Under the pieces are notes generated by a model. It did not search any database. It saw nothing but the letters and a program-made list of their open reading frames with translations, and was not told where the DNA came from. A program made the position numbers and the translations under genes. A DNA stretch of 63,215 nt, filler included, from Basidiobolus ranarum (lineage: Eukaryota): the NCBI GenBank assembly GCA_040143965.1. It is 44 parts of 44 records of this genome, joined end to end, with 100 filler letters (N's around TTAATTAATTAA, not from the genome) between each part and the next. Parts side by side here need not be neighbours in the genome. Positions count along the whole stretch, not along the records: positions 48,973 to 50,308 come from JASJQH010005495.1; 43 more parts are not named here. One strand, written 5' to 3'. Below are positions 10,400 through 63,215 of this stretch, in pieces (within the stretch, counting starts at the first letter, position 1; each line of letters starts with the position of its first letter).

Positions 10400-11318
10400 T
10401 GTTAAGGTATTTGGGAGCCTGTTGGAAGTGGTTTTGGAGAATTAAAGAAACTGGTGGTTTTCACTTATTGATTTATTGAGTAGAAAGTTGACATTTATAG
10501 TTTTGTCAGGATGTAAAAAAACTAATGTGTAGAATTTGTTAAGGATGGACCCAGGAACATGTGTGCAAAGTTTTGTGCTTCTAGCACAAGTTTGAAAAAT
10601 CTATATATCTGAGAACTCCCAAGTTGGTAAAAATATTTCAAGTAAATTCCAGTTGAGAATAAAAGATAATATCTTAGTGATAATATAAGATAACTTAGTA
10701 CTAAGCTATATATAGCTATATAGGTGTTTAGGCAATGCTAAGTTCAACACTCTCCCTCAACTAAATAGTCATATAAAGTAGTCCTAATAAAGGGCTAAAT
10801 TTCTCAAATTTCTATCTAGCTAATGGTTTGGTTAATATATTGGCAATCATGTCTTCTGTAGAACAATACAGTAAGTCAATAAACCTATTCTCCACAGTCT
10901 CTCAAACAAAGTGATACTTAGTACCTATATGTTTGCTTTTATTATGAAACATGGGATTTTTAGCTAATTTGATGTAACTTTGATTATCTTGAAATATTGC
11001 AGTTGGTGAATTTTGAGAATAATCTAAATCTGTTAAGAGTTTTCTTAACCATATTGCTTCTTTTGTTGCTGTGCAGGCAGTCATGTATTCAGCTTCCATT
11101 GTTGAAAGTGCTATAGTAGGTTATTTCTTTGAATTCCAAGAAATAACTCCATTACAGCAAAGAAATAAGTATCCTGTTGTGAATCTCCTGTCTTCAATCT
11201 CTGTTCTCCAATTTGCATCTGAATATCCCATCAGATCAAAGTTTGATCCAGAATATTAGTATTTTAAGCATAGATCCACTGTACCTTTCAAATATCTGAA
11301 AATCCACTTAACTGCTAT
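10400..11318 (-). mobile_element. Copia 3' end: RNase H (10790-11318), PPT (10750-10765) and 3' LTR-B (10400-10749)
   Basis: EAEYM.A..ATKEAIWL, DNQS.I.LAKNP.FH..SKHI; PPT AGTTGAGGGAGAG abuts TGTTGAA; LTR is TG...CA, 350 bp. Confidence 0.92.
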
Positions 11319-11552: not shown

Positions 11553-12894
11553 CAAACAATTCAACACACATGACCACATTGAAAGTGCCCTTGTTTGGCA
11601 TGTTGTTAAACTCTGGAGTCTCCTTAACCCATTCCATTAACTCCATGACTGATTTAGCTGATTCTTTGTTTATCAGATTAGCATATGGTAACACTGGCAA
11701 TTTCACACCGGGCATCATTTCACCGCCGGTGCGCTCTGTTGGGAACTCCCAGAATGTATAGCAAGGGCCAATAGTCTCTAAGCATTGTGAAAGAGGTAGC
11801 AGGAAATGTATTGGATACTGGCATAGATTCAGTCTATCTTCTTTAAGCCTGTAATAAAGTTTTCCATATCCAATTACAAAATCTTTGAACAGTTGCTGTA
11901 TCTGCCTGAGATCTGCCAATGTAAGTTGATGCCATAAGAGTATATTGACAATATCCACAAACAACTCCCAATGTTGCCAACACTTATCAGGCAGAAATCT
12001 TTTCAAAATTGCACTTGAATATATACAAATCCAATAATTCCAGTCTTTGCATTTGAATAAATGCTTAGATGAGTGGATATTGATGGGAGTCCTGGTAAAA
12101 TATGATGGTATCTTGACATTTCCAAGCATTTTCCCAATCAATTCAAACTTTGATCCTATCTCAAACGGCTCATTCATATTGAATTTTCATCTATATAGCT
12201 GAGTAAGTAATATCAGAATGTTGTTGAATAGCAAGTGCATAGTGCCTAATGGGAAGCTCTGGCTCCAGCTGATCCCCTCAGGCAATATAATCTTAGGCTT
12301 ATGGCTTATACCAAGTTTGATGTTAGACTGACTATTTGGTGAATGGATATCAGCGATCATGTTGAAATCTGACCAGGCTCTTGTTGGGAAAATCATGGAG
12401 TTTAGTATTGTATTTGGATAGCAGTAATGCGTATGCCTGATAGAGTAAACTCCATTGATTTGACAAAATCTGCAGCAAGATAGTGCATTGTGCCTGCAAA
12501 AACCTTCAAGTTTACTGATGGCAGGAGGGTCACCAATACAAACAATTATATTAGCTTTCATGAAATATTTACTCATCTGAACCCCATTAGATAACCATTC
12601 AAATTCCTCAATCAAAGGCTCCAAGAAGCTATCTATTAGCACTGGTGATTTAGGTCCAGATGTGATGGACAGTATCAAAATATTATAACTCTTGTACCAA
12701 TAAGCAGGAGGAAGATTTAAGTTGATTAAAATTATTGGCCAGCAAGCCTTTCCAATGGTGTATTTGTTTAGTGAGAAACCATCCAGAGCCAATGCAGATG
12801 CATGATCTAACATGTTCTCCAAGAAACCTTGACTTTTCAGATTCTGGTAGTGATATCCATCAAGTATGTTGGTAATACCATCAGCTTTATGGTG
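11553..12894 (-). mobile_element. CACTA-like transposase, best-preserved core (ORFs 12187-12822 and 11553-12177, one internal stop)
   Basis: LALDGF, CWPIILINLNLPP, GPKSP, DSFLEPL, CIGDPPA, HNALSCCRFC, MHLLFNN, FKCKDW, FWEFPTER. Confidence 0.9.
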
Positions 12895-14730: not shown

Positions 14731-15108
14731 TGTTGAAGTGTATTGTCTTTATTGTATTTGTTATCTTTATCTTTATACACCTAACTATTTCATATATCAC
14801 ATATAAGTTAGTTAACATTACTTAGTGCAATATCACTTGGCTGAAAATTGAAACATATATTATATATATATGTGAATAATGTGAGAATTGGCAATTCCAT
14901 ATTGGAAATTTCAAACTTGTCCAAATTGCCCCAAATATAGCTCATTTTACTCCCACAGATTTTCTGAACACAACCCCAGTGTTAGTTTTCAGCATTTCTA
15001 CCAAAAAGTATAAATGCTTTATTTCTGGACAATAAATAATTATATGACAAAGCTATTCACAACCCCACTTTTCTAAAGTTCCTCCAAACAGCCTATATTT
15101 TCCCAATA
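14731..15108 (+). repeat. Full-length LTR-A (378 bp) without matching TSD
   Basis: TGTTGAAG...CCCAATA; flanks GCTAT and GTTAC belong to unrelated sequences. Confidence 0.9.
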
Positions 15109-15878: not shown

Positions 15879-16472
15879 AGATTTAGAGACTCTAATTTCC
15901 TTCCATTTCCTGGAGTATTTCCCAATAGAGTTCATATCAGAAGTATTCTTGACACATTTCCAGTCAGAATTAACAGGCCCAAAAGCAACCAAAAGCTATT
16001 CTATTCTGGCAAGTACAAAGCCCACTGTGTAAAGTTCCAGGCTTTGACAGATTTGGAAGGAAACATCATTTGGTTCAGTGGGCTACTTCCAGGGAGACAC
16101 CATGACAAAAGGCTTTGGGTTGAGAGGCATGCACCATTTGTAAGATATGAGAAGACTATGGCTGATTTGGCATATGTTGGGGAAGAATGCAGAAGGCTAG
16201 GATGTGTCACTGCTAACAAGAGGCCCAGAGGAGGGATACTCACAGAGAGGCAAAAGCTTTATAATGACATTTTTTCCCATTTTAGAGCAAGAGTAGAACA
16301 TAGCTTTGGTTTCCTAAAGAGATATAGCATTGTAGCAGGAAAGTATAGAGGAAAATCATTTTGTGGGCCTCAATCAAAGTTAGGCAAAGTGGTCAAAATC
16401 TTGATTAATTTTCAATACATCCATACTCAAAGATATCCATTGAGAGCTCTAGACTTAAGACACTATGAATAA
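15879..16472 (+). CDS. PIF/Harbinger-ISL2EU (PHIS, DDE_Tnp_4-like) transposase, 5'-truncated, uninterrupted frame
   Basis: 198 codons open from the contig start: ILDTFPV.I.RP, FYSGKYKAHCVKFQ, PGRHHD, MADLAYVG, YN...SHFRARVEHSFGFLKRY (D-D-E triad present). Confidence 0.9.
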   Translation, partial: RFRDSNFLPFPGVFPNRVHIRSILDTFPVRINRPKSNQKLFYSGKYKAHCVKFQALTDLEGNIIWFSGLLPGRHHDKRLWVERHAPFVRYEKTMADLAYVGEECRRLGCVTANKRPRGGILTERQKLYNDIFSHFRARVEHSFGFLKRYSIVAGKYRGKSFCGPQSKLGKVVKILINFQYIHTQRYPLRALDLRHYE

Positions 16473-16658: not shown

Positions 16659-17219
16659 ATTATATGATATTCTGGAATCAAGCAGCTATATGAGTTGTGA
16701 AACATTAGGCAGCATTGGAAATGCACCAATTTATACCAGAAAACCTGATAATTACTCTGAGGGTACTGATAGTTTGGAACCAGCGTCTGAAAATCAGCAT
16801 AGTATCACTGCCAATGAAAAATATGGTAATCAGAAAAAGATATTTTCCAGCCAATCAGGAATCAGGAAATTGGGCTCAGAAACAAGGCAATGATTTTCTG
16901 ACCAATCACATGCCTAAGAAATATTCCACTCTAAATTTGGCTAATATTGGATGCAATCGATTATTGGAAGTATGCAATCAATCACAACAAGTATTCAATC
17001 AATCACAAAATTCAGGCAATCAGGTCTCAGAAATCCTACCAAGTGGAAATCAGAAACATCCTGTAAGTGAAACATCTGACCATTCTACCAAGGACTTTGG
17101 ATGTCTCAAATCAGAGCATAAAATCAACAGTTTCAATTCAGAAAAAGGGTGGAATATATCTGCACATATAGCATTTTCTGAACCAGAAAATTTGACACAA
17201 GCTCTGAAATCTGATGAAG
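16659..17219 (+). mobile_element. Copia IN-RT linker (same family as 1-1345)
   Basis: Near-colinear with 262-823; ends EPENLTQALKSDE. Confidence 0.9.
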
Positions 17220-19036: not shown

Positions 19037-20101
19037 TATTGGGAAAATATGGGCTCTTTGGAGGAAGTTTGAAAAGTGGAGTTGGAAATAGCTTTGTGAG
19101 ATAATTATTCATTGTCCAGAAATAAAGCATTTATACATTTTGGTGGAAATACAGAAAACTAACACTGGGGTTGAGTTCAGAACATCTGCCAGAGTAAAAT
19201 AAGCTATCTTTGGGGCAATTTGGAAAAGTTTGAAGTTTCCAATATGGAGTTGCTAATTTTCACATTATTCACCTATATTTATAAAATATGTTCTGATTTT
19301 TGGCTAAGTGATATTTGACCAAGTAATGTTAACCAACTTATATGTGATATAAGAAATAGTTAGGTGCATGAAGATAGAGATAACAAATATGATAAAGACA
19401 ATAAACTTCAACAATCCCACTCAACTAAATATGATTTTTGGTCATCAGGTAACTTAACCAAAGTCCAAGTTTGATTATCTATGAGTGACTGATACTCCTC
19501 TGCCATTGAAGCATCCCAAAACTTTGTGTTGGAACTCTTCATAGCCTCCTGTACTGATTTGGGCTCATCAGAAAAGGCTAAATTAGTACTAGGCTGCTTT
19601 TGGCTAGTGTGGGAGTAGTAATCAGATGGCAATCTCATTGAACTGGATCTCCTAAGATAGGAAATAGGCACTACAACTTCTGGTGCCAATGTAGGCAACG
19701 TAACCACCTCAGGCTTGGTTTAGGAGCCCACAGGGGAGGAATTCTCAATGTTTTTCTCAGTGATCAGGATCTTGTGAGAGAAAGAAAAGATATTCATCAA
19801 TATTGGGTTGATTTTCTTGATACTGGATTGTTTTTATTGAAAATTTTTGTTCTTCATCAAATTCCATCTCCCTTGACTTAATTAGCCTCCGATTTTCAGT
19901 GTCATATAGTATGTACCCTTTTGCTCTATCAAAATATCCCACAAAAAGACATTTCTGGCTTTTTTGGTCCAATTTTGATCTCTTCTGGTTTGGAATCATT
20001 GCATATGTGGTACTTCCAAAAACTCTGAGATTAGCCACATCAGGTTTACTTCCAAACCAAGCTTGATAAGGTGTCATAGTCAATAGAGACCTAGAAGGAC
20101 A
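19037..20101 (-). mobile_element. Internally deleted copia: integrase C-terminus/SH3, RT start, then directly PPT and 3' LTR-A (19037-19413)
   Basis: TPYQAWFGSKPDVANLRVFG, RSKLD, CLFVGY; EP.SV.EAM, EEYQSLIDNQTWTLV; PPT at 19414-19430. Confidence 0.9.
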
Positions 20102-27404: not shown

Positions 27405-27855
27405 TACCCAAACCAAAATTTTAAGAATTAAGATTTAAGTTAGGATTAAGATATATGAATATTTAGTTGAGTGGGAGAGTTGAAGTTAATTGTCTTTAAC
27501 ATATTTGTTATCTCTATCTTTATACACCTAACTATTTCATATATCTCATATAAGCTAGTTAACTTCACTTAGTCAAATATCACTTAGCTGAAAATCGGAA
27601 CATATATTATATATATATGTGAATAATGTGCACATTAGCAATTCCATATTGGTAATTTCAAACTCATCCAAATTGCCCCAGAGATAGTGCATTTTACTCC
27701 CACAGATATTCTGAGCACAATCCCATTGTTAGTTTTCTGTATTTCCACCAAAATGTTTAAATGCTTTATTCCTGGACAATAAATAATTATCTCACAAAGC
27801 TATTCACAACTCCACTTTTCTAAAGTTCCTCCAAGCAGTCCATATCTTCCCAATA
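27405..27855 (+). mobile_element. Copia 3' end, PPT and 3' LTR-A (27478-27855), inserted into LTR-B
   Basis: PPT AGTTGAGTGGGAG; LTR ends CCCAATA. Confidence 0.9.
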
Positions 27856-28191
27856 TTTGGGAGCCTCTCAGAAGTGGTTTGGATAATAAGAGGAATTGGT
27901 GGTATTCACTTATTGATTTAATGAGTAGAAAGTTGACATTTATAGTTTTGTCAGGATGTAAGCAAACCAACATGTAGAATGTGTCAAGAAAGGTCTCAGG
28001 AACATGTGTGGAAAGTTTGGGGCTTCTAGTATAAGTGTAAAATCTATACATCTGAGAACTTCTAAGTTGGTAAAAATATTCTAAGTATATTCCAATTGAG
28101 AATATTGGATAATATCTTAGTGAAATATAAGATAACTAAGTACTAAGCTATATATGACTATATAGGTGTTTAGGCAATGCTAATTTCAACA
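27856..28191 (-). repeat. LTR-B, nearly full length
   Basis: Colinear with 10400-10749. Confidence 0.9.
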
Positions 28192-43226: not shown

Positions 43227-44563
43227 CCAATACTTCCAGTTTTTGCATTTGAATAAACGCCTAGATGAGTGGATATTGATGGGAGTCCTGGTAAAATATG
43301 ATAGTATCTTGATGTTTTCAAGCATTTTCCCAATTGATTCAAACTTTGATCCTATCTCAAATGGCTCATTCATATTGAATTCTCCACTATATAGCTGAGT
43401 AAGTAGTATTGGAATGCTGTTGAATAGTAAGTGCATAGTTCCTAATGGGAAGCTCTGGCTCCAGCTGATACCCATTAGCAATATGATCTTAGGCTTACAG
43501 CTAATACCAAGTATGATATTAGACTGGCTATTTGGTGAATTGATATCAGTGATCATGTTGAAATCTGACTGGGCTCTTGATAGTAAGATCATGGAGCTTA
43601 GTTTGGTATTTGGATAGTAGTAAAGTATATGCCTGATAGAGTACACTCCATTGATTTGACAAAATCTACAGCAAGATAGTGCATTGTGCCCACAAAGGTC
43701 TCCAAGGTTACTGATGGCAGGAGAGCCACCAATACATACATTGATATTAGCTTTAATTATATATTCACCCATCTGAACCACATTAGATAACTGTTGAAAA
43801 TCTGCAATCAAAGGCTCCAAGAAGCTTTCTATAGGCACTGGTGATTGAGGTCCAGATATGATAGATAGTATCAAAATATTATGACTGTAATACTGCTCAG
43901 AAGGAGGAAGATTTAAGTTAATCAAAATTATTGGCCAGCAAGTCTTTCCAATGGTATATTTGTTTAGTGAGAAACCATCCAGAGCCAATGCAAATGCACC
44001 ATCAAATATGTTCTCTAAGAAACTTGACTTTTCAGATTCTGGTGGTTATATCCATCAGGTATATTGGTAATACCAACAGCTTTATGGTGAGTACTTTGCT
44101 ATTGGATCAACAATCTATATTTGGGTGGTTTTATCAGCACTTTAAGATGGGGAATCAATGTTATGTAAGCCAAATGTTAGCAGTATTTACCTAATTCAGT
44201 GATTGCAATTGTGTGCAAACAGTACATGACTTCAGGTTTTTGAAAACACCGGTGTAAGCCAAACAGCCATTTGGACATGAAGGTAGTTCAATTACTGAAT
44301 GCTTATATGTCATATAATTGACAAGTGTTTTCCACTTGTACCAGGCCTGTGGCAAGCAACAGTTGCCAACCAACTGTGAAAAAAGTGCAAGAAAGCCAAT
44401 AAACACTTTGTTACTAAGATTGGATTGAACTCTCCACTCCTCAATAATCAAAGCTGCTTCCTTTTTCTAAGTGTTGTGAGTGGACTAATGCTTGCTGATA
44501 ACAAAGAGTCCATAACAAAACCACGTCTTCTTCTTCAACTTCTGATACACTACCATCAGTACT
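43227..44563 (-). mobile_element. CACTA-like transposase core
   Basis: Long ORF ending at the contig edge with LDGF, NLNLPP, GHNALSCCRFC, MHLLFN; CPNGC upstream. Confidence 0.9.
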
Positions 44564-44663: not shown

Positions 44664-46000
44664 AAATCTCTTAAGCCAGAGTTGAACAGTTTCTTATTGG
44701 ATTAACATATTCATGCACATAAACCTCGTGGATTACATGTAAGGTTGTACAAGTTCAGATCCTTTTCTCCTAAAGCTAAATAATTCCCATTTTGATTTCT
44801 AATGGTGCATCCTGACTTATCAAAATTGATTATTAGCCCTTCTAAGGTGACTTTGCATACAGATATTAAATTCTTGGCAAAATCTGGAACATGTAATACA
44901 TCCTTAAAAGTACATATTTTCTCTTCAGAAGCTCCAGTTAAATTGACTTGAATTCTTTCCATTCCAATAGCATCCAATGTGCAGTCATCTCATATGAAAA
45001 CATTTCTAATTAGGATTTCTTCATAATCCACAAACCAATGTTTTTCATTGGTCAAATGTCAGGAAGCTCTAGAATCAATATGTAATATCTGAGAATCCTT
45101 GTTGGGAGTCATAGATAGAGCAGATATGAACAAGCAATCTTCTGTTGTAACCGTATTTCCAGATTGAGTACATTTTTCTTCTTTAGCAATTCTTTTAAAG
45201 CAATCTTGGCTTAAATGTCCAGTTCAATTACAGTAATCTCAAAATGTGTTCCTTTTCTTTTTAAAATGCCTTTGACCTTGATATGAAGATTTCCCATAGC
45301 CTATTAAAGCATTTTGCTCTTTCCTTTGGTTGGATCCTGATTTATGTAAATCTTCATCCAGAAGTCTGCCAAATATATTATTTAAGGTCAAATTTTAAGT
45401 TCTTGATTCTAGAGCCATTACTAGGCTCTGAAACTCAAGTGGCAGGCTATTTAGGACTGTAACTATGATATCTAGATCAGTAGTAGGTATTCCAATGCAT
45501 TCCATTTCAACCACTAAAATAATGACTGTATTAATTAGTGATTTAATGTCTCCTCCTGGCTTCATCCTTGAGTATAAAAATTGTCTTCTTAGAAACATAT
45601 TCTTGGCACCACAACTTGTTTGATAGGTATCTTCCAAGGCTTTCTCTACCTTCTTGGCAGTTTAAGCTCTTGAACATTCAATTAGCAATTTGTCTTTAGC
45701 ATTAAGTCATATTGTGTCAAAGTCACATTGTTTTTTTAACTTGGAGTACAATTTTGGCTGCAGATAGTTTTACATTGATTTCTTCCCCTACAACAATCTC
45801 TCAAAGTCCTTTTTCTTGCAGCGGCAATTTTCATTTTAATTTTCCATACTTGACAATTGGTCCCATCCAATTTTTAACAAGAGGGAAAAGTTCCAAAAAT
45901 TTGAGAAGTAGACACTACAGAGAGTGCAAGCTTGGGGCTCATACCCTGTTTAAGTATTTGGGGGCCTGTTGGAAGTAGTCTGGAGTATTAGAGGAATTGG
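44664..46000 (-). mobile_element. Copia 5' end: LTR-B (45947-46000), PBS (45934-45946), gag and protease, decayed
   Basis: LTR end CA followed by GGGTATGAGCCCC; VLNSLP..FQSLVMALES; DVLHVPDFAKNLISV. Confidence 0.9.
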
Positions 46001-48972: not shown

Positions 48973-48998
48973 CCCAGGTTCAAATCCTGGCCAGACCA
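48973..48998 (+). tRNA. tRNA-like 3' fragment (T arm, acceptor 3' strand, discriminator; no CCA), probably inside an LTR
   Basis: CCAGG-TTCAAAT-CCTGG T stem-loop (B box) followed by the 7-nt CCAGACC and A. Confidence 0.7.
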
Positions 48999-49188
48999 AT
49001 ATTTCTCCCTAAATAATTGCAATAGTTTATGAGCCCCAGTTAGTGCTAAATCTGGAAATCCTTCTTGAGGGGAAATGTCGAAAGTCTAATGACTTGTGGT
49101 ACAAGCAGTAATTCCCAAGGAGAAAAATATGGAGTATGGTGACTTTATCTGAACATAAAGTCTATGGCTAATCAGTTTCTTGTATAGC
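48973..49188 (+). mobile_element. Candidate TRIM with tRNA-bearing LTR: 5' LTR end 49024, PBS 49025-49037, PPT 49067-49075, 3' LTR from 49076
   Basis: ...TGCAATA, GTTTATGAGCCCC (one mismatch to the PBS at 59673), 51-bp interior, GAGGGGAAA, TGTCGAAAG. Confidence 0.6.
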
Positions 49189-50308
49189 TGATATGTCAAA
49201 GTACTATACATTAACAGACTAGGTTAAGGCTCCCCAGCAATATAGGCATAGTATTGAGGCTGGTTCCTGAGGTGAGTGCAATTTTGGGACTTGATTCACT
49301 GATAAATTGACTGATTAATTTTATTTTGATGGTGCTATTTTTATAGGGTTGATCAAGAGAAAATCAAGTGGCATTCCTGCCGGATTTGGGAGTGTGCTAA
49401 TTTTGAAACATGTATATAACACTGACAGCCTGTTTCCAATGTCTTGTAACTTTTGTCTCCGCAGTCTGTTTGTTTTAAATTTTAACCTAAGGTAGAATAA
49501 TAGTAGGGAATGATTTCCCCATAAAGTTTAGTAATGATTTGTCCAGTAGTTCTGGAGATATTTGCATTTCTTTGCTTGCTTTGGTGATTGCAAGACATGT
49601 GGGAAAGGTGTTGATATAAAACTGGGTGACAATGAAGGTTTGCTTATGCATTTTATGTGTACAAACTATTGTGTTGATTGAAGCATTATGTTGTCTCCAA
49701 AATTGCCATTGCTTTTGTCTGATAATCCAATTTTGTAATGTATCTGCACACTTAGATCAAATCTTCTCCTGAAGAAAAAATGTTTTTATTCCACCAGTAT
49801 GTGGATATGTCCTGTTCTGCCAGAGGTAACTTAGCTTTGATGAGGTGCTCTCTATGTACTAAAGTTGGTTTGATTGTTCCTTTCCTATCCCTGAGTTGAT
49901 AGGTATTGAAAGGACATTTTTGAACTACTTCAAATGGACCCTTCCACTTGGGTTCAAACTTTAGCTTAGTTTCATTTTTGATGAGTACATATTCACCTTC
50001 TTGGAATTCTGAGTGCTTTATGACTCTATCAAAACAAATTTTCATGCGTTCTGATGCTCCTTTTGACCAAGCTATGGCAGCTGCTCAGTGTTGATTAAGT
50101 TCTTCTAAACCCCCAGCTCTATACTCTGCTAAATCTTCTGGATTCTTAAGATCCCAAAGTTTGGGTCTGATGATGTCTCCAGGGAGTATGGGATGTTGTC
50201 CATACACCAAAAAGAAAGGTGATAGACCTGTTGTAAAGTGGCTTCTAATTCTACAGGCAAAGAGGGCTTGTTGTATAAATTGTTCCCACTTGTGTGTTGC
50301 TCCTTTAC
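49189..50308 (-). mobile_element. Gypsy integrase C-terminus (49752-50308), PPT and probable 3' LTR (49189-49759)
   Basis: ALFACR...TGLSPFFLVYGQHP, FQEGEYVL, KFEPKWKGPFEV; TGAT...ATCA termini, TATAAAA and AATAAA on the minus strand (left boundary inferred). Confidence 0.8.
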
Positions 50309-59324: not shown

Positions 59325-60349
59325 TGTTGAAATTAGCTTTGCCTAAACACCTATATAGTCATATATAGCTTAGTACTTAGCTATCTTATAATTTACTAAG
59401 ATATCATCAATTATTCTCAATTGGAATTTTCTAAAAATATTTTTACCAACTCAGAAGTTCTCAGATATATATATTTTTCAAACTTGTGCTAGAAGCTACA
59501 AACTTTGCACACATGTTCCTGGTACCTTCCTTAATATATTCAACATGTTTGTTTGTTTACATCTTGACAAAACTATAAATATCAACTTTCTACTCAATAA
59601 ATCAACAAGTGAAAACCACCAATTCCTCTAATTCTCCAAACCACTTCCAACAGGCTCCCAAATACTCTAACAGGTTATGAGCCCCAAGCTTGCACTCTCT
59701 GTAATGTTTAATTCTCAAATCTATGGAACTTTTCCCTCTTCTGAAAAATTGGATGGAACTAATTATTGAGTTTGGAAAATTAAAATGAAAGTGCTGCTGC
59801 AAGTAAAAGAACTTTGGGACACTGTTGTAGGAGAAGAAAACAATACAGAACTTTCTGCAACCAAAGTTTTACTCCATGTTAAAAAAGAGCAAAGTGCCTT
59901 TATCACAGTTTGACTTAATGTTAAAGACAAACTGTTAATTCAATGTTCAAGAGCTAAAACTGCCAAGAAGGCATGGAAAGCCTTGGAAGACACCTACCAA
60001 ACAAGTTGTGCTGTCAACAAGATGTTTCTAAGAAGACAATTCTTTAACTTAAAGATGAAGCAAGGAGAAGACATTAAATCACTAATTAATAGAGTCACTA
60101 TAGTGGTGGATGAAATAGAATGTATTGGAGTACCTACCACGGATCAAGATATCATAGTTACTGTCCTGAATAGCCTGCCATACAAGTTTCAGAGCCTAGT
60201 AATGGCTCTAGAATCAAGAACTGAAAATTGACCTTAAATTATCTATATGGCAGACTTCTGGATGAAGACTTACACAAATCAGGACTCAACAAAAAGGATG
60301 AAGAAAATGCTTTAATATGCTATGGGAAACCTTCCTATAAAGGTCAAAA
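59325..60349 (+). mobile_element. Copia 5' end: LTR-B (59325-59672), half-tRNA-iMet PBS (59673-59684) and decayed gag, inserted into a related gag
   Basis: TGTTGAAA...CTAACA then GGTTATGAGCCC; EKLDGTNY.VWK.KM..LLQVKELW. Confidence 0.92.
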
Positions 60350-60449: not shown

Positions 60450-61035
60450 CCATTGATTTTAGAACGGCTTTGACTCTATCATCAGCTGGACCGTACGGTG
60501 GACGAATGAATGCAGTTCGGACACCAGTGATGTTAAAGATGGCTTCTTCAGTGGATTTCACCTCAGCAATAATTTGCTCGTTACTCAAAGACATCAAACG
60601 AGGATGAGACCAGGTATGACTAGCGATTTGATGACCGGCTTCATAAGCTCGTTTGACTACAGCAGGGTATTTAATGACATTTGAACCTAACATAAGGAAA
60701 GTGGCTTTTACATTGGAAGCTCCTAGGATATCCAATAGTTCAGCAGTTTTATCAGATGGGCCGTCGTCAAAAGTAAGTGCCCATTTGTTAGCAGTACAAC
60801 CGTAAATGTCTTCATCTCGAGCACAATTTCCGCAAGACTCCCAGCATTTTTCACAATCCTGCGGACCACTAGTAGTTCCAGGACTAGTGCCAGTGCTTTC
60901 TAGTTTAGGCGAGATATTCGGAACGTTCGACAAGTCTACGGCTTTGACCCATTCTGGTTTAATCTCAGGAGGAGGAACTTGAGCAAGAGCTATAGCGAAG
61001 AAAGCAGCTAAAAGTGAGTATGTTTGGAGTCCCAT
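60450..61035 (-). CDS. Secreted chitin deacetylase (CE4/NodB polysaccharide deacetylase), 3'-truncated
   Basis: Signal peptide MGLQTYSLLAAFFAIALAQ; WALTFDDGP, ATF, HQIASHTWSH, RPPYG motifs; TATAAA about 45 bp upstream. Confidence 0.95.
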
Positions 61036-63215
61036 TGCTTCTATTGAGTATATTTGAGTTTGTGGAGAGGCTCTGCAGTCTTTATATAAGCTCGATGAGC
61101 ACAATATCTTTATCAAGTATAATATATTTCCTTATAATAGCTCTCTCTATTTCTTCACATATGGTAACAAGATATCTGCTTTAGTGCGCTAATATTAGAT
61201 AAAAGTTTGGGAATTATATCCAGACTCCTTTTCCAAAAAAAAGCAGTAGCAGAAGCGGATAATAGCCTAGCAACGCCGGTATTCAATCAGAATTATTAAA
61301 GATACTGTATTAGGTAATTCCGGGAATGACTATCACTATCTTGGGTGGCTTGCATTTGAAACGGGAAACTATTGTATGGGCAACTCATTTGCTTTTTCCT
61401 CAAACGATCAGTTGGATAAATTAATTGCGCCAACGCAATCCAAATGCTTGGTCTATAGTCATGTGACCTATAAACTAGACGTCTTGGTTTTTTTTGTAGA
61501 CATGATGATGATTTCTAAACAATACAATCTTACCTATACTATGGGTGTCCTACAGCGATAACTGAGGAGGAAGGGTGTTTGATTCTTGGCTTTCCTTTTG
61601 CTTGCCTTTTCTTTTACCTGGTTTTTGGGGCATAAATCGGTCAGGACGGGTCCCTTTTTCTCCAAGTGAAGCTAAGATATGCTGGAAATTAAGTAATGCA
61701 GAAAGGGCTCGGCTCCAAAGTCGGCTAATGCTACTGGCGGGGGGGGGCATCAAAAAATTTTTGTTTGTGCGCCAATTTGTCGNNNNNNNNNNNNNNNNNN
61801 NNNNNNNNNNNNNNNNNNNNNNNNNNTTAATTAATTAANNNNNNNNNNNNNNNNNNNNNNNNNNNNNNNNNNNNNNNNNNNNGAACAAAGCTATCAGTGA
61901 AGTATTTAGATTTAATTTTGAGCAAAATGCTTAAACAATCTGGAGCCAAAAAGCAGATTACACAGCTTCTAGAGCATAATATCTTATTTAATATGGAGTC
62001 AGCTGCTGCAACTGCAGCTAAGGTGATTGATGTGGAAATTTGGCAAGCAATTTAGAGGTATTCAGGCCCAGCAATTATGAAAATCATACTTAAAAGCTGG
62101 TAAGTTTTGTTAAAGATTAGAATATTTGCTATATATATTTTCCCTATCCACCAACACCTAAGTAGTCAATTTATCTATAACTTATATATGACATTGGATA
62201 AAAATGGCCTATTTGGTAAGTCAGAGTTGTGACTTTGACTTCCTACTATGGGAATTATGTGTGGGAGCTGGATATATGGCTTTCTCTGATGTGTTGCATT
62301 TGTGAACTTTCCACTCGAAGGTGACCTTGCCATTAGCAGCAGATGTTCACTTATTACCAGTGGCAAAAGCCATGAGCTACTGACCAGCCGTCGTACTGAT
62401 TGAGCTGAGCAGCCGAGACAAAAGAGGTGACAGCAATTAAGAAAAGAGTAATGCATGCTCTCATATTTCTACAATGCATATATATTGACAACTTTAGAGG
62501 TATGGCTTCTTATATAGACACTAGTGAGACCTTTATTTTTAATATTAGTGAAAGTATACTGGTTCACACAATTCTGGCTATACAAGACGTTCTACAATTT
62601 TTTAGATGAGTTAAATGTATAACGAGATGTTATACCTATCATAGTTCACAGCCGACTTTCAATTGTTGAATTTATACATCTTAAATCTTTTGATTGATAC
62701 ACATACAGATGTCAATATGGTTATCGCTTAAAAGTAGTATGTATCCTTTTACACATATATTTTCCTAAGTCTCAATATTGTGAATGAGTTCCTCAAGCAA
62801 TAGTGAGGGTTTTGTTGGATCAACTGTTCCACATCTTAAATGTAAATGTATACTGTTAACAGAGAACTCTTGCGTAATATAAATGTTCTTACTCTCAATG
62901 ATTTTTAGATGCAGAATCAATAGAGTTTTGCAGAAGAAACATCGTCTGGAAAAATATACAGCTTTTATATACCTGCGCCAGATGTACAGAAACCAGATAT
63001 CACGCAATTATAAATAGCAATCTTTTAAAGAATTTATACTTCCAAGAAGAAGTACTGAATGAGTAAATTCATCTAGTAAAACCACTACTGTGAGTACTTC
63101 AATGCTATTATTGGTTTTTAATCATTTCCTTTTTACAGACCCTTTCCCTCAAACCGTTCAAGCTTGGGAACATGAGTTCAAAAACAAAAAACCTCTTCGT
63201 ATTCTTGATCTCCAT

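Follow-up and report, generated by a model that had tools for sequence, protein, structure and literature searches.

Helenus elements (the TRIMp3 group) are miniature terminal-repeat retrotransposons (TRIMs) with tRNA-derived sequence in their long terminal repeats (LTRs), and they were described, fungal families included, by Kojima (2024; PMC10886601), to passages of whose text and supplement all statements on published families below refer. Here, we compare them with a short segment at 48973-49188 of a 63,215-nucleotide stretch of Basidiobolus ranarum DNA (the window, filler included), which we read, with a probability of roughly 0.6, as a dead and truncated copy of a Helenus-type TRIM carrying tRNA-derived sequence near the 3′ end of its LTR. 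The window is composed of 44 contigs, all unplaced and 1333-1345 bp long, ordered by size and joined by N44-TTAATTAATTAA-N44 linkers (1346-1445, 2791-2890, and so on to 61783-61882); the joins between contigs are artificial, so features read across a linker are meaningless. The element under study lies at the extreme left of the contig at 48973-50308 (1336 nt), where 48973 is the first base to the right of a linker and the element therefore has no true neighbour to the left. A cut by the contig edge on this side, as proposed in the initial annotation of the segment, is thus confirmed.

A total of 113 fungal Helenus families were reported, from Pucciniales and a few Agaricomycetes, with LTR lengths of 111-269 bp and internal parts measuring 51-225 bp (Table S1 of PMC10886601), while the total size of published elements ranges from 311 to 1263 bp. 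The fungal families make 5-bp target-site duplications, and most of them have a primer-binding site complementary to a tRNA's anticodon loop, with tRNA-iMet-CAT being the dominant one; where an internal part starts with ggttatgagccc, its primer site was attributed to the tRNA-iMet anticodon loop. The helpers proposed were copia elements that share the primer site of Helenus, and the LTRs of Helenus and of its copia helper are dissimilar. The insertion of a short interspersed element (SINE) into the LTR of a TRIM was proposed as the origin of the group, and a role as RNA polymerase III (Pol III) promoter was proposed, not demonstrated, for Helenus (PMC10886601). In plants, Cassandra TRIMs carry 5S rRNA-derived sequence in their LTRs and have no known helper (PMC10886601). 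Both groups had been named as precedents in the initial annotation, Cassandra for 5S RNA in its LTRs and Helenus as a tRNA-LTR group reported from fungi among others, and the passages of that paper bear out both descriptions.

The miniature core and its match to resident copia elements

An LTR end, a primer-binding site, a spacer, a polypurine tract and an LTR start were observed in exact order and spacing within 110 nt, and this TRIM core, which is matched to the local copia elements, is well supported. Directly after the CAATA of the LTR end lies the 13-nt primer-binding site GTTTATGAGCCCC (49025-49037, + strand), which is of the tRNA-iMet anticodon stem-loop type and has one mismatch to the copia site at 59673 and two to the copia site at 45934 (- strand); it is also one mismatch away from the published ggttatgagccc type of Helenus. 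At up to two mismatches, five matches to the primer site were found in the window against 1.03 expected, with none of 100 shuffles reaching five, and at up to one mismatch there were three, compared with a mean of 0.02 in simulated windows (200 first-order Markov sequences of window size). Two 13-mers with two mismatches, at 16871-16883 (-) and 19718-19730 (+), have no LTR end upstream and were treated as chance matches.

A spacer of 27 nt without coding capacity (49038-49064, + strand) separates the primer site from the polypurine tract TTGAGGGGAAA (49065-49075, + strand), which stands directly before an LTR start reading TGTCGAA. The 18-mer formed by the tract and the LTR start, TTGAGGGGAAATGTCGAA (49065-49082), is identical to the copia junction at 14 of 18 positions. 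Sites within four mismatches of the copia junction numbered six in the window, comprising the element and five true copia LTR starts, with a chance expectation of 0.71 per window for both strands in the simulations. From the simulated rates, we estimate that both signals would occur by chance in the correct order within 300 nt about 4e-5 times per window. The internal part as a whole (49025-49075) measures 51 bp and contains no open reading frame (ORF). The similarity of the spacer to the copia leader was not significant (the score was reached by 142/1000 and 530/1000 shuffles), and the LTR bodies of the element and of the copia families were not alike in BLASTN; the 51-bp internal part therefore comprises only the two replication signals seen in the local copia elements. 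The initial annotation had claimed a copia primer site with one mismatch directly after the LTR end and a polypurine tract with a TGTTGAA-like start 51 bp after that end; both claims hold, with the start lying at 49076.

Two copia LTR families, A and B, occur as fragments in the window and were used as the reference. Family B is represented by a 5′ LTR with its primer site at 59325-59685 (+ strand), in which the LTR (59325-59672) runs from TGTTGAAATT to CTCTAACA and is followed by GGTTATGAGCCCC at 59673, by a second copy with the primer site GGGTATGAGCCCC at 45934 (-), and by a polypurine tract with the start of a 3′ LTR at 10743-10760 (- strand), where TTGAGGGAGAG precedes TGTTGAA. A copy of LTR-A at 14731-15108 (+ strand) runs from TGTTGAAGTT to TTTTCCCAATA, and its CAATA end is also the end of the element under study. 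The LTR-A start was read at four junctions (21232, 27467, 19407 (-) and 13906 (-)) as TTGAGTGGGAG and then TGTTGAAG, while the LTR-A end, ...CCCAATA, is the point where homology stops in five of six copies, with the sixth ending in CAATG. Fragments of copia gag and reverse transcriptase (RVT_2) with open frames are present elsewhere in the window. The element shares with the resident copia the primer site, the tract with the LTR start, the start TGT(T/C)GAA and the end CAATA, and copia family B is presumed to be its helper type. Separately, an LTR-A copy at 27479-27858 (+) was seen to adjoin a reversed LTR-B copy (28191-27854, -) that has lost its last bases, which points to nesting of one LTR within the other by insertion.

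The tRNA-like sequence and the Helenus-like layout

The segment begins with a tRNA-like 3′ part, CCCAGGTTCAAATCCTGGCCAGACCA (48973-48998, + strand), which is cut on its 5′ side by the contig edge and gave a 5′-truncated match to the Rfam tRNA family RF00005 at model positions 46-71, with 18.5 bits and an E-value of 0.95 (1336-nt contig, 4227 families). It contains a T stem of five pairs, the loop TTCAAAT, the 3′ acceptor strand CCAGACC and the discriminator A, after which no CCA was found by direct reading. Its B box, GGTTCAAATCC, retains the conserved GGTTC, and the tRNA-like part precedes the LTR end by 26 nt. The motif GGTTCRANNCC occurs only once in the window, at this part; shuffles expect 0.27 occurrences and 24 of 100 shuffles had at least one, so the motif alone is not significant. 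No complete tRNA was found in the window by ARAGORN, and the Rfam scan of the entire window at E ≤ 0.1 gave no match. The truncated match agrees with the initial annotation, in which a tRNA 3′ half (T arm/B box, acceptor strand, no CCA) had been placed here, and direct reading likewise agrees with its placement 26 bp before an LTR-like CAATA end as in LTR-A.

The tail of the presumed 5′ LTR (48999-49024, + strand) is U5-like by direct reading, measures 26 nt, begins with ATATTTCTCCC and ends in CAATA. Ordinary Pol III genes terminate at an oligo-T run. A T-run scan found no run of four or more within 48973-49188, including the 190 nt after the tRNA-like 3′ end, which is unusual for an ordinary tRNA gene because such genes end at oligo-T, and the missing run would let a Pol III transcript continue through the internal part. 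Only one A run of four or more exists in the element region, at 49123. The tRNA-like part probably lies inside the LTR, because only then does the copia-type end 26 nt beyond it need no further events, and because both the spacing, which fits the published families, and the missing T run argue for this position. As a further observation on the tail, the acceptor strand together with the tail (48991-49015; CAGACCAATATTTCTCCCTAAATA) shows a loose alignment to the final ~20 nt of copia LTR-A (CAGCCCATATTTTCCCAATA, e.g. 15049-15108). The score of the tail against the LTR-A end was reached by 7-23 of 500 shuffles for four of the five copies and by 257 of 500 for the fifth, and no similarity signal was found against the LTR-B end; the U5 ends of the element and of LTR-A might be related, or the likeness might be low-complexity chance.

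Consensus sequences from the supplement of PMC10886601 (Helenus-2_MLP, Helenus-4, -14 and -16_CroRib, and Helenus-1_HemVas) were compared with the element by eye. Their layout comprises a T arm with acceptor strand, a tail of 17-28 nt (our own count), an internal part that starts with ggttatgagccc or ggttatgggccc and closes with a G-rich run, and then tgttg, and the layout of the element was the same point for point in this comparison, with its 26-nt tail falling inside the published range. The same ggttcaaatcctgg T arm is present in three Helenus entries and in the element, which over the 18 nt of its T arm equals some families of rust Helenus, and the LTR of Helenus-1_HemVas (from Hemileia) ends in ...ttaata, comparable to CAATA. 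Also common to both are an LTR start of TGT(T/C)G, a short non-coding internal part ending in a purine run, and a copia with the same primer site in the same genome. However, the element is known from one broken copy, and its 51-bp internal part stands at the lower published limit; its tail has T3, whereas four published Helenus tails have T4 or T3; and its host appears to be of zygomycete grade, while the hosts of the published fungal families are Pucciniales and a few Agaricomycetes.

The longer strings of the element (primer site with the next base, tail, and LTR start) were absent from the searched passages of the PMC10886601 supplement, in which strings spanning a line break could be missed, suggesting that the element is not one of the published families. 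A literature search pairing TRIMs with zygomycete-grade lineages gave no occurrence of the TRIM phrase among the matches listed, and relevant use of the term 'TRIMp3' in the literature search was confined to a single paper. Passages of the main text of the Entomophthora muscae genome paper (PMC11105155) mention neither TRIM nor copia.

The likeness to other known systems is partial. Cassandra and the element are both miniature LTR elements with a piece of a small-RNA gene, and hence a possible Pol III promoter, in the LTR, but the piece is 5S-derived in Cassandra and tRNA-like in the element, and Rfam scans found no 5S match in the contig or the window. Canonical TRIMs ('TRIMp2', PMC10886601) resemble the element in having presumed short LTRs, a primer site, a tract, no genes and a dependence on autonomous elements, but they have no small-RNA-derived sequence in their LTRs. 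Ty5 and Drosophila copia resemble the element in that their primer site is complementary to tRNA-iMet at its anticodon stem-loop and not at its 3′ end (PMC10886601, section 3.6), and this half-tRNA type of primer site is also seen at the resident copia sites 59673 and 45934; Ty5 and copia are autonomous, whereas the element has no coding capacity. Finally, tRNA-derived SINEs (SINE2) are, like it, short non-coding repeats with a B box derived from a tRNA, but the element has no SINE body and no A-rich or LINE-like tail, and an LTR end, a primer site and a tract follow instead.

The visible portions of the element are the last 52 nt of the 5′ LTR, the 51-bp internal part and the first ~113-120 nt of the 3′ LTR. 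The start of the presumed 3′ LTR (49076-49188, + strand; TGTCGAAAGTC...) covers 113 nt, or possibly 120 (to 49195). The two flanks are probably parts of one LTR, the length of which would then be at least 165 bp. The copy is dead, as both LTRs are incomplete and both the primer site and the LTR start are altered (the second base of the primer site from G to T, and a T of the LTR start to C). The cis signals and their match to copia are present, and from these we infer that the element was replicated in trans by copia. In such a cycle, an RNA spanning from the 5′ LTR to the 3′ LTR would be packaged in trans by the Gag and Pol of resident Ty1/copia elements; the minus strand would be primed at 49025-49037 by the 5′ half of initiator tRNA-Met, cut in its anticodon loop, and the second (plus) strand at the polypurine tract; and the copia integrase would insert the copy, recognising the TGT(T/C)GAA...CAATA ends. 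The LTR may also contain a Pol III promoter, with the A and B boxes of the tRNA-like sequence acting as such by analogy with Helenus and Cassandra.

Evidence against the Helenus-type reading and alternative explanations

Several observations weigh against a Helenus-type TRIM. The defining direct repeat is not visible, since the LTR pieces of 52 nt and 113 nt share no overlapping stretch; the A-box region of the 5′ LTR falls past the contig edge, and neither an A box nor a 5′ tRNA part was detected in 49076-49188, where a stand-alone Rfam scan found no tRNA part and the A-box likeness of TGGCTAATCAG at 49166-49176 is loose and by eye only. The other 43 contigs contain no further copy of any of its parts, as BLASTN of the contig against them (word size 7) gave only chance matches of 12-29 nt and the primer site; within the window, BLASTN likewise found nothing similar to 49076-49188. 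Outside the primer site and the tract, the internal part shows no significant similarity to the copia leader. A chimeric join is possible, as the contig is an unplaced fragment of 1.3 kb. A flawless T arm stands beside an altered primer site and an altered LTR start, a combination that would fit a real tRNA gene as well. There is no prior from the lineage, because the passages of PMC10886601 contain no Helenus from zygomycete-grade fungi, and nothing related appeared in scans of metagenomes or of a genome collection. The metagenome scan for a Helenus signature of general form (a T arm and, after a gap of 30-45, TTATGAGCCC) gave zero matches. Separately, two metagenome loci retrieved with the 20-mer of acceptor strand and tail were rejected as chance, as neither has a T arm or a primer site, and so was one locus from the prokaryote genome scan with the Helenus signature, which lies inside GC-rich bacterial DNA. 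A TRIM with a tRNA in its LTR, as put forward in the initial annotation, therefore stands in part: the signals of the internal part, the copia-like termini and the spacing of the T arm support it, but the repeated LTR, the A box, target-site duplications (both outer ends of the element are missing) and a second copy were not seen.

The alternative that survives best, though still unlikely, is a complete, ordinary tRNA gene lying across the contig edge beside a 5′-truncated, copia-dependent TRIM or deletion derivative, so that the tRNA is simple flank, perhaps brought into adjacency by an insertion preference near tRNA genes. Only 26 nt of the tRNA are visible and these are flawless, the presumed 3′ LTR piece shows no A box, and the break of the contig falls within the tRNA, as would be expected of short-read assemblies at multi-copy tRNA genes. 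However, this explanation requires a deletion of the whole 5′ LTR save a tail that ends in CAATA right before the primer site, and it has to accommodate both the lack of a downstream terminator-like T run over 190 nt and a 26-nt spacing that falls within the 17-28 nt of published Helenus (PMC10886601).

It is rather improbable, in our judgement, that the core belongs to a conventional, Pol II-type TRIM or to a tiny internal-deletion derivative of copia in which the tRNA piece is private to this copy, inserted as a SINE or a tRNA retro-copy, and is neither a family feature nor a promoter. The copia-like primer site, tract and termini need no tRNA, and the weak likeness of the tail to the LTR-A end could mean a copia-derived U5 end, but the tRNA-like part has neither a SINE body nor an A-rich tail behind it, and its position mirrors that in published Helenus LTRs (PMC10886601). 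This explanation also grades into the Helenus-type reading, because Kojima (PMC10886601) derives Helenus from a SINE insertion into the LTR of a TRIM.

An assembly chimera, in which the tRNA, the TRIM core and a gypsy fragment were joined artificially in the 1.3-kb unplaced contig, would suit a window made of 44 small leftover contigs in which transposon fragments abound, but it is very improbable, since the signals follow each other exactly in their functional order, without extra sequence between them, across 110 nt, less than the length of typical reads. That the segment resembles such an element by chance, as AT-rich repeat debris, is favoured by the lack of significance of both the B-box motif alone and the leader similarity, but this is extremely unlikely, as the primer site and the junction together are far below chance and the truncated tRNA match adds to them.

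The interrupting gypsy element, the genomic setting and wider meaning

To the right of the presumed 3′ LTR, the contig carries a C-terminal fragment of a Ty3/gypsy-type pol (integrase C-terminal region; 49752-50308, - strand), which contains one in-frame TGA and runs off the contig. The fragment aligns, at an identity of 37%, with residues 933-1090 of a protein of 1140 aa that has RVP_2, RVT_1, RT_RNaseH and rve domains and a weak match to MLVIN_C, while searches of PDB and NCBIfam with it gave nothing useful. Because the pol C-terminus lies on the minus strand, the 3′ untranslated region and the 3′ LTR of this gypsy must run left toward the element, and the interval downstream of the pol stop was read directly as 49189-49751 (- strand). 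A candidate gypsy LTR of 232 bp at 49196-49427 reads TGTCAAAG...CACTGACA on the + strand and forms a TG...CA unit whose terminal inverted repeat is imperfect. Its border is putative, and the gypsy border may lie at 49189 (TGATATG...) or at 49195/49196. No second copy of the pol end or of its flank was found in the window by tblastn and BLASTN. The initial annotation had the 3′ LTR cut by a gypsy insertion at 49189; the gypsy-type pol end is indeed present, but the position of the junction is unconfirmed.

Other mobile-element debris in the window includes fragments of gypsy gag, protease and RNase H and three ORF fragments of DNA transposons, at 12190-12894 (-), 43227-44045 (-) and 15879-16469 (+), two of which are of the tnp2/Transposase_21 type (CACTA-like) and one of the DDE_Tnp_4 type (PIF/Harbinger-like). 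The sole clear host gene found is an open 227-aa fragment of a polysaccharide/chitin deacetylase at 60451-61131 (-), with a Pfam E-value of 6e-37. Among the proteins searched (399-2000 aa), its closest named relatives are from Basidiobolus ranarum (62-67% identity), followed by those of Mucorales and Mortierellales (~40-56%), with Agaricomycete matches at ≤44%. Judged from these identities, the fragment points to a zygomycete-grade fungus and not a rust as its host, though one gene is thin evidence.

It is a tentative proposition, to which we give rather less than even odds, that a genuine multi-copy Helenus-type (TRIMp3) family exists in this early-diverging, zygomycete-grade fungus and parasitises a half-tRNA-primed copia. 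If true, TRIMs with a tRNA promoter would occur outside Dikarya, and the design would either far exceed in age the ~130 million years proposed for rust Helenus (PMC10886601) or have been re-invented, in the latter case wherever a copia with a tRNA-iMet anticodon-loop primer site meets tRNA-derived repeats. At present, the locus is one dead fragment, of practical use as a lead in annotating repeats and not as evidence of a new mechanism; this kind of element has already been described in Helenus, and the host lineage is the possible new point. In rust fungi, Helenus elements account for most of the predicted 'tRNA genes' (PMC10886601, Table 2), and if such a family exists in this genome, its tRNA-like predictions and small-RNA annotations need the same correction, and the host range of Pol III-type TRIMs extends to a new fungal lineage. 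In that case, the window would also provide a matched helper candidate, namely a copia with the same primer site, tract and termini, and such a pairing of element and helper is a requirement for studying how parasites of this kind are recognised.

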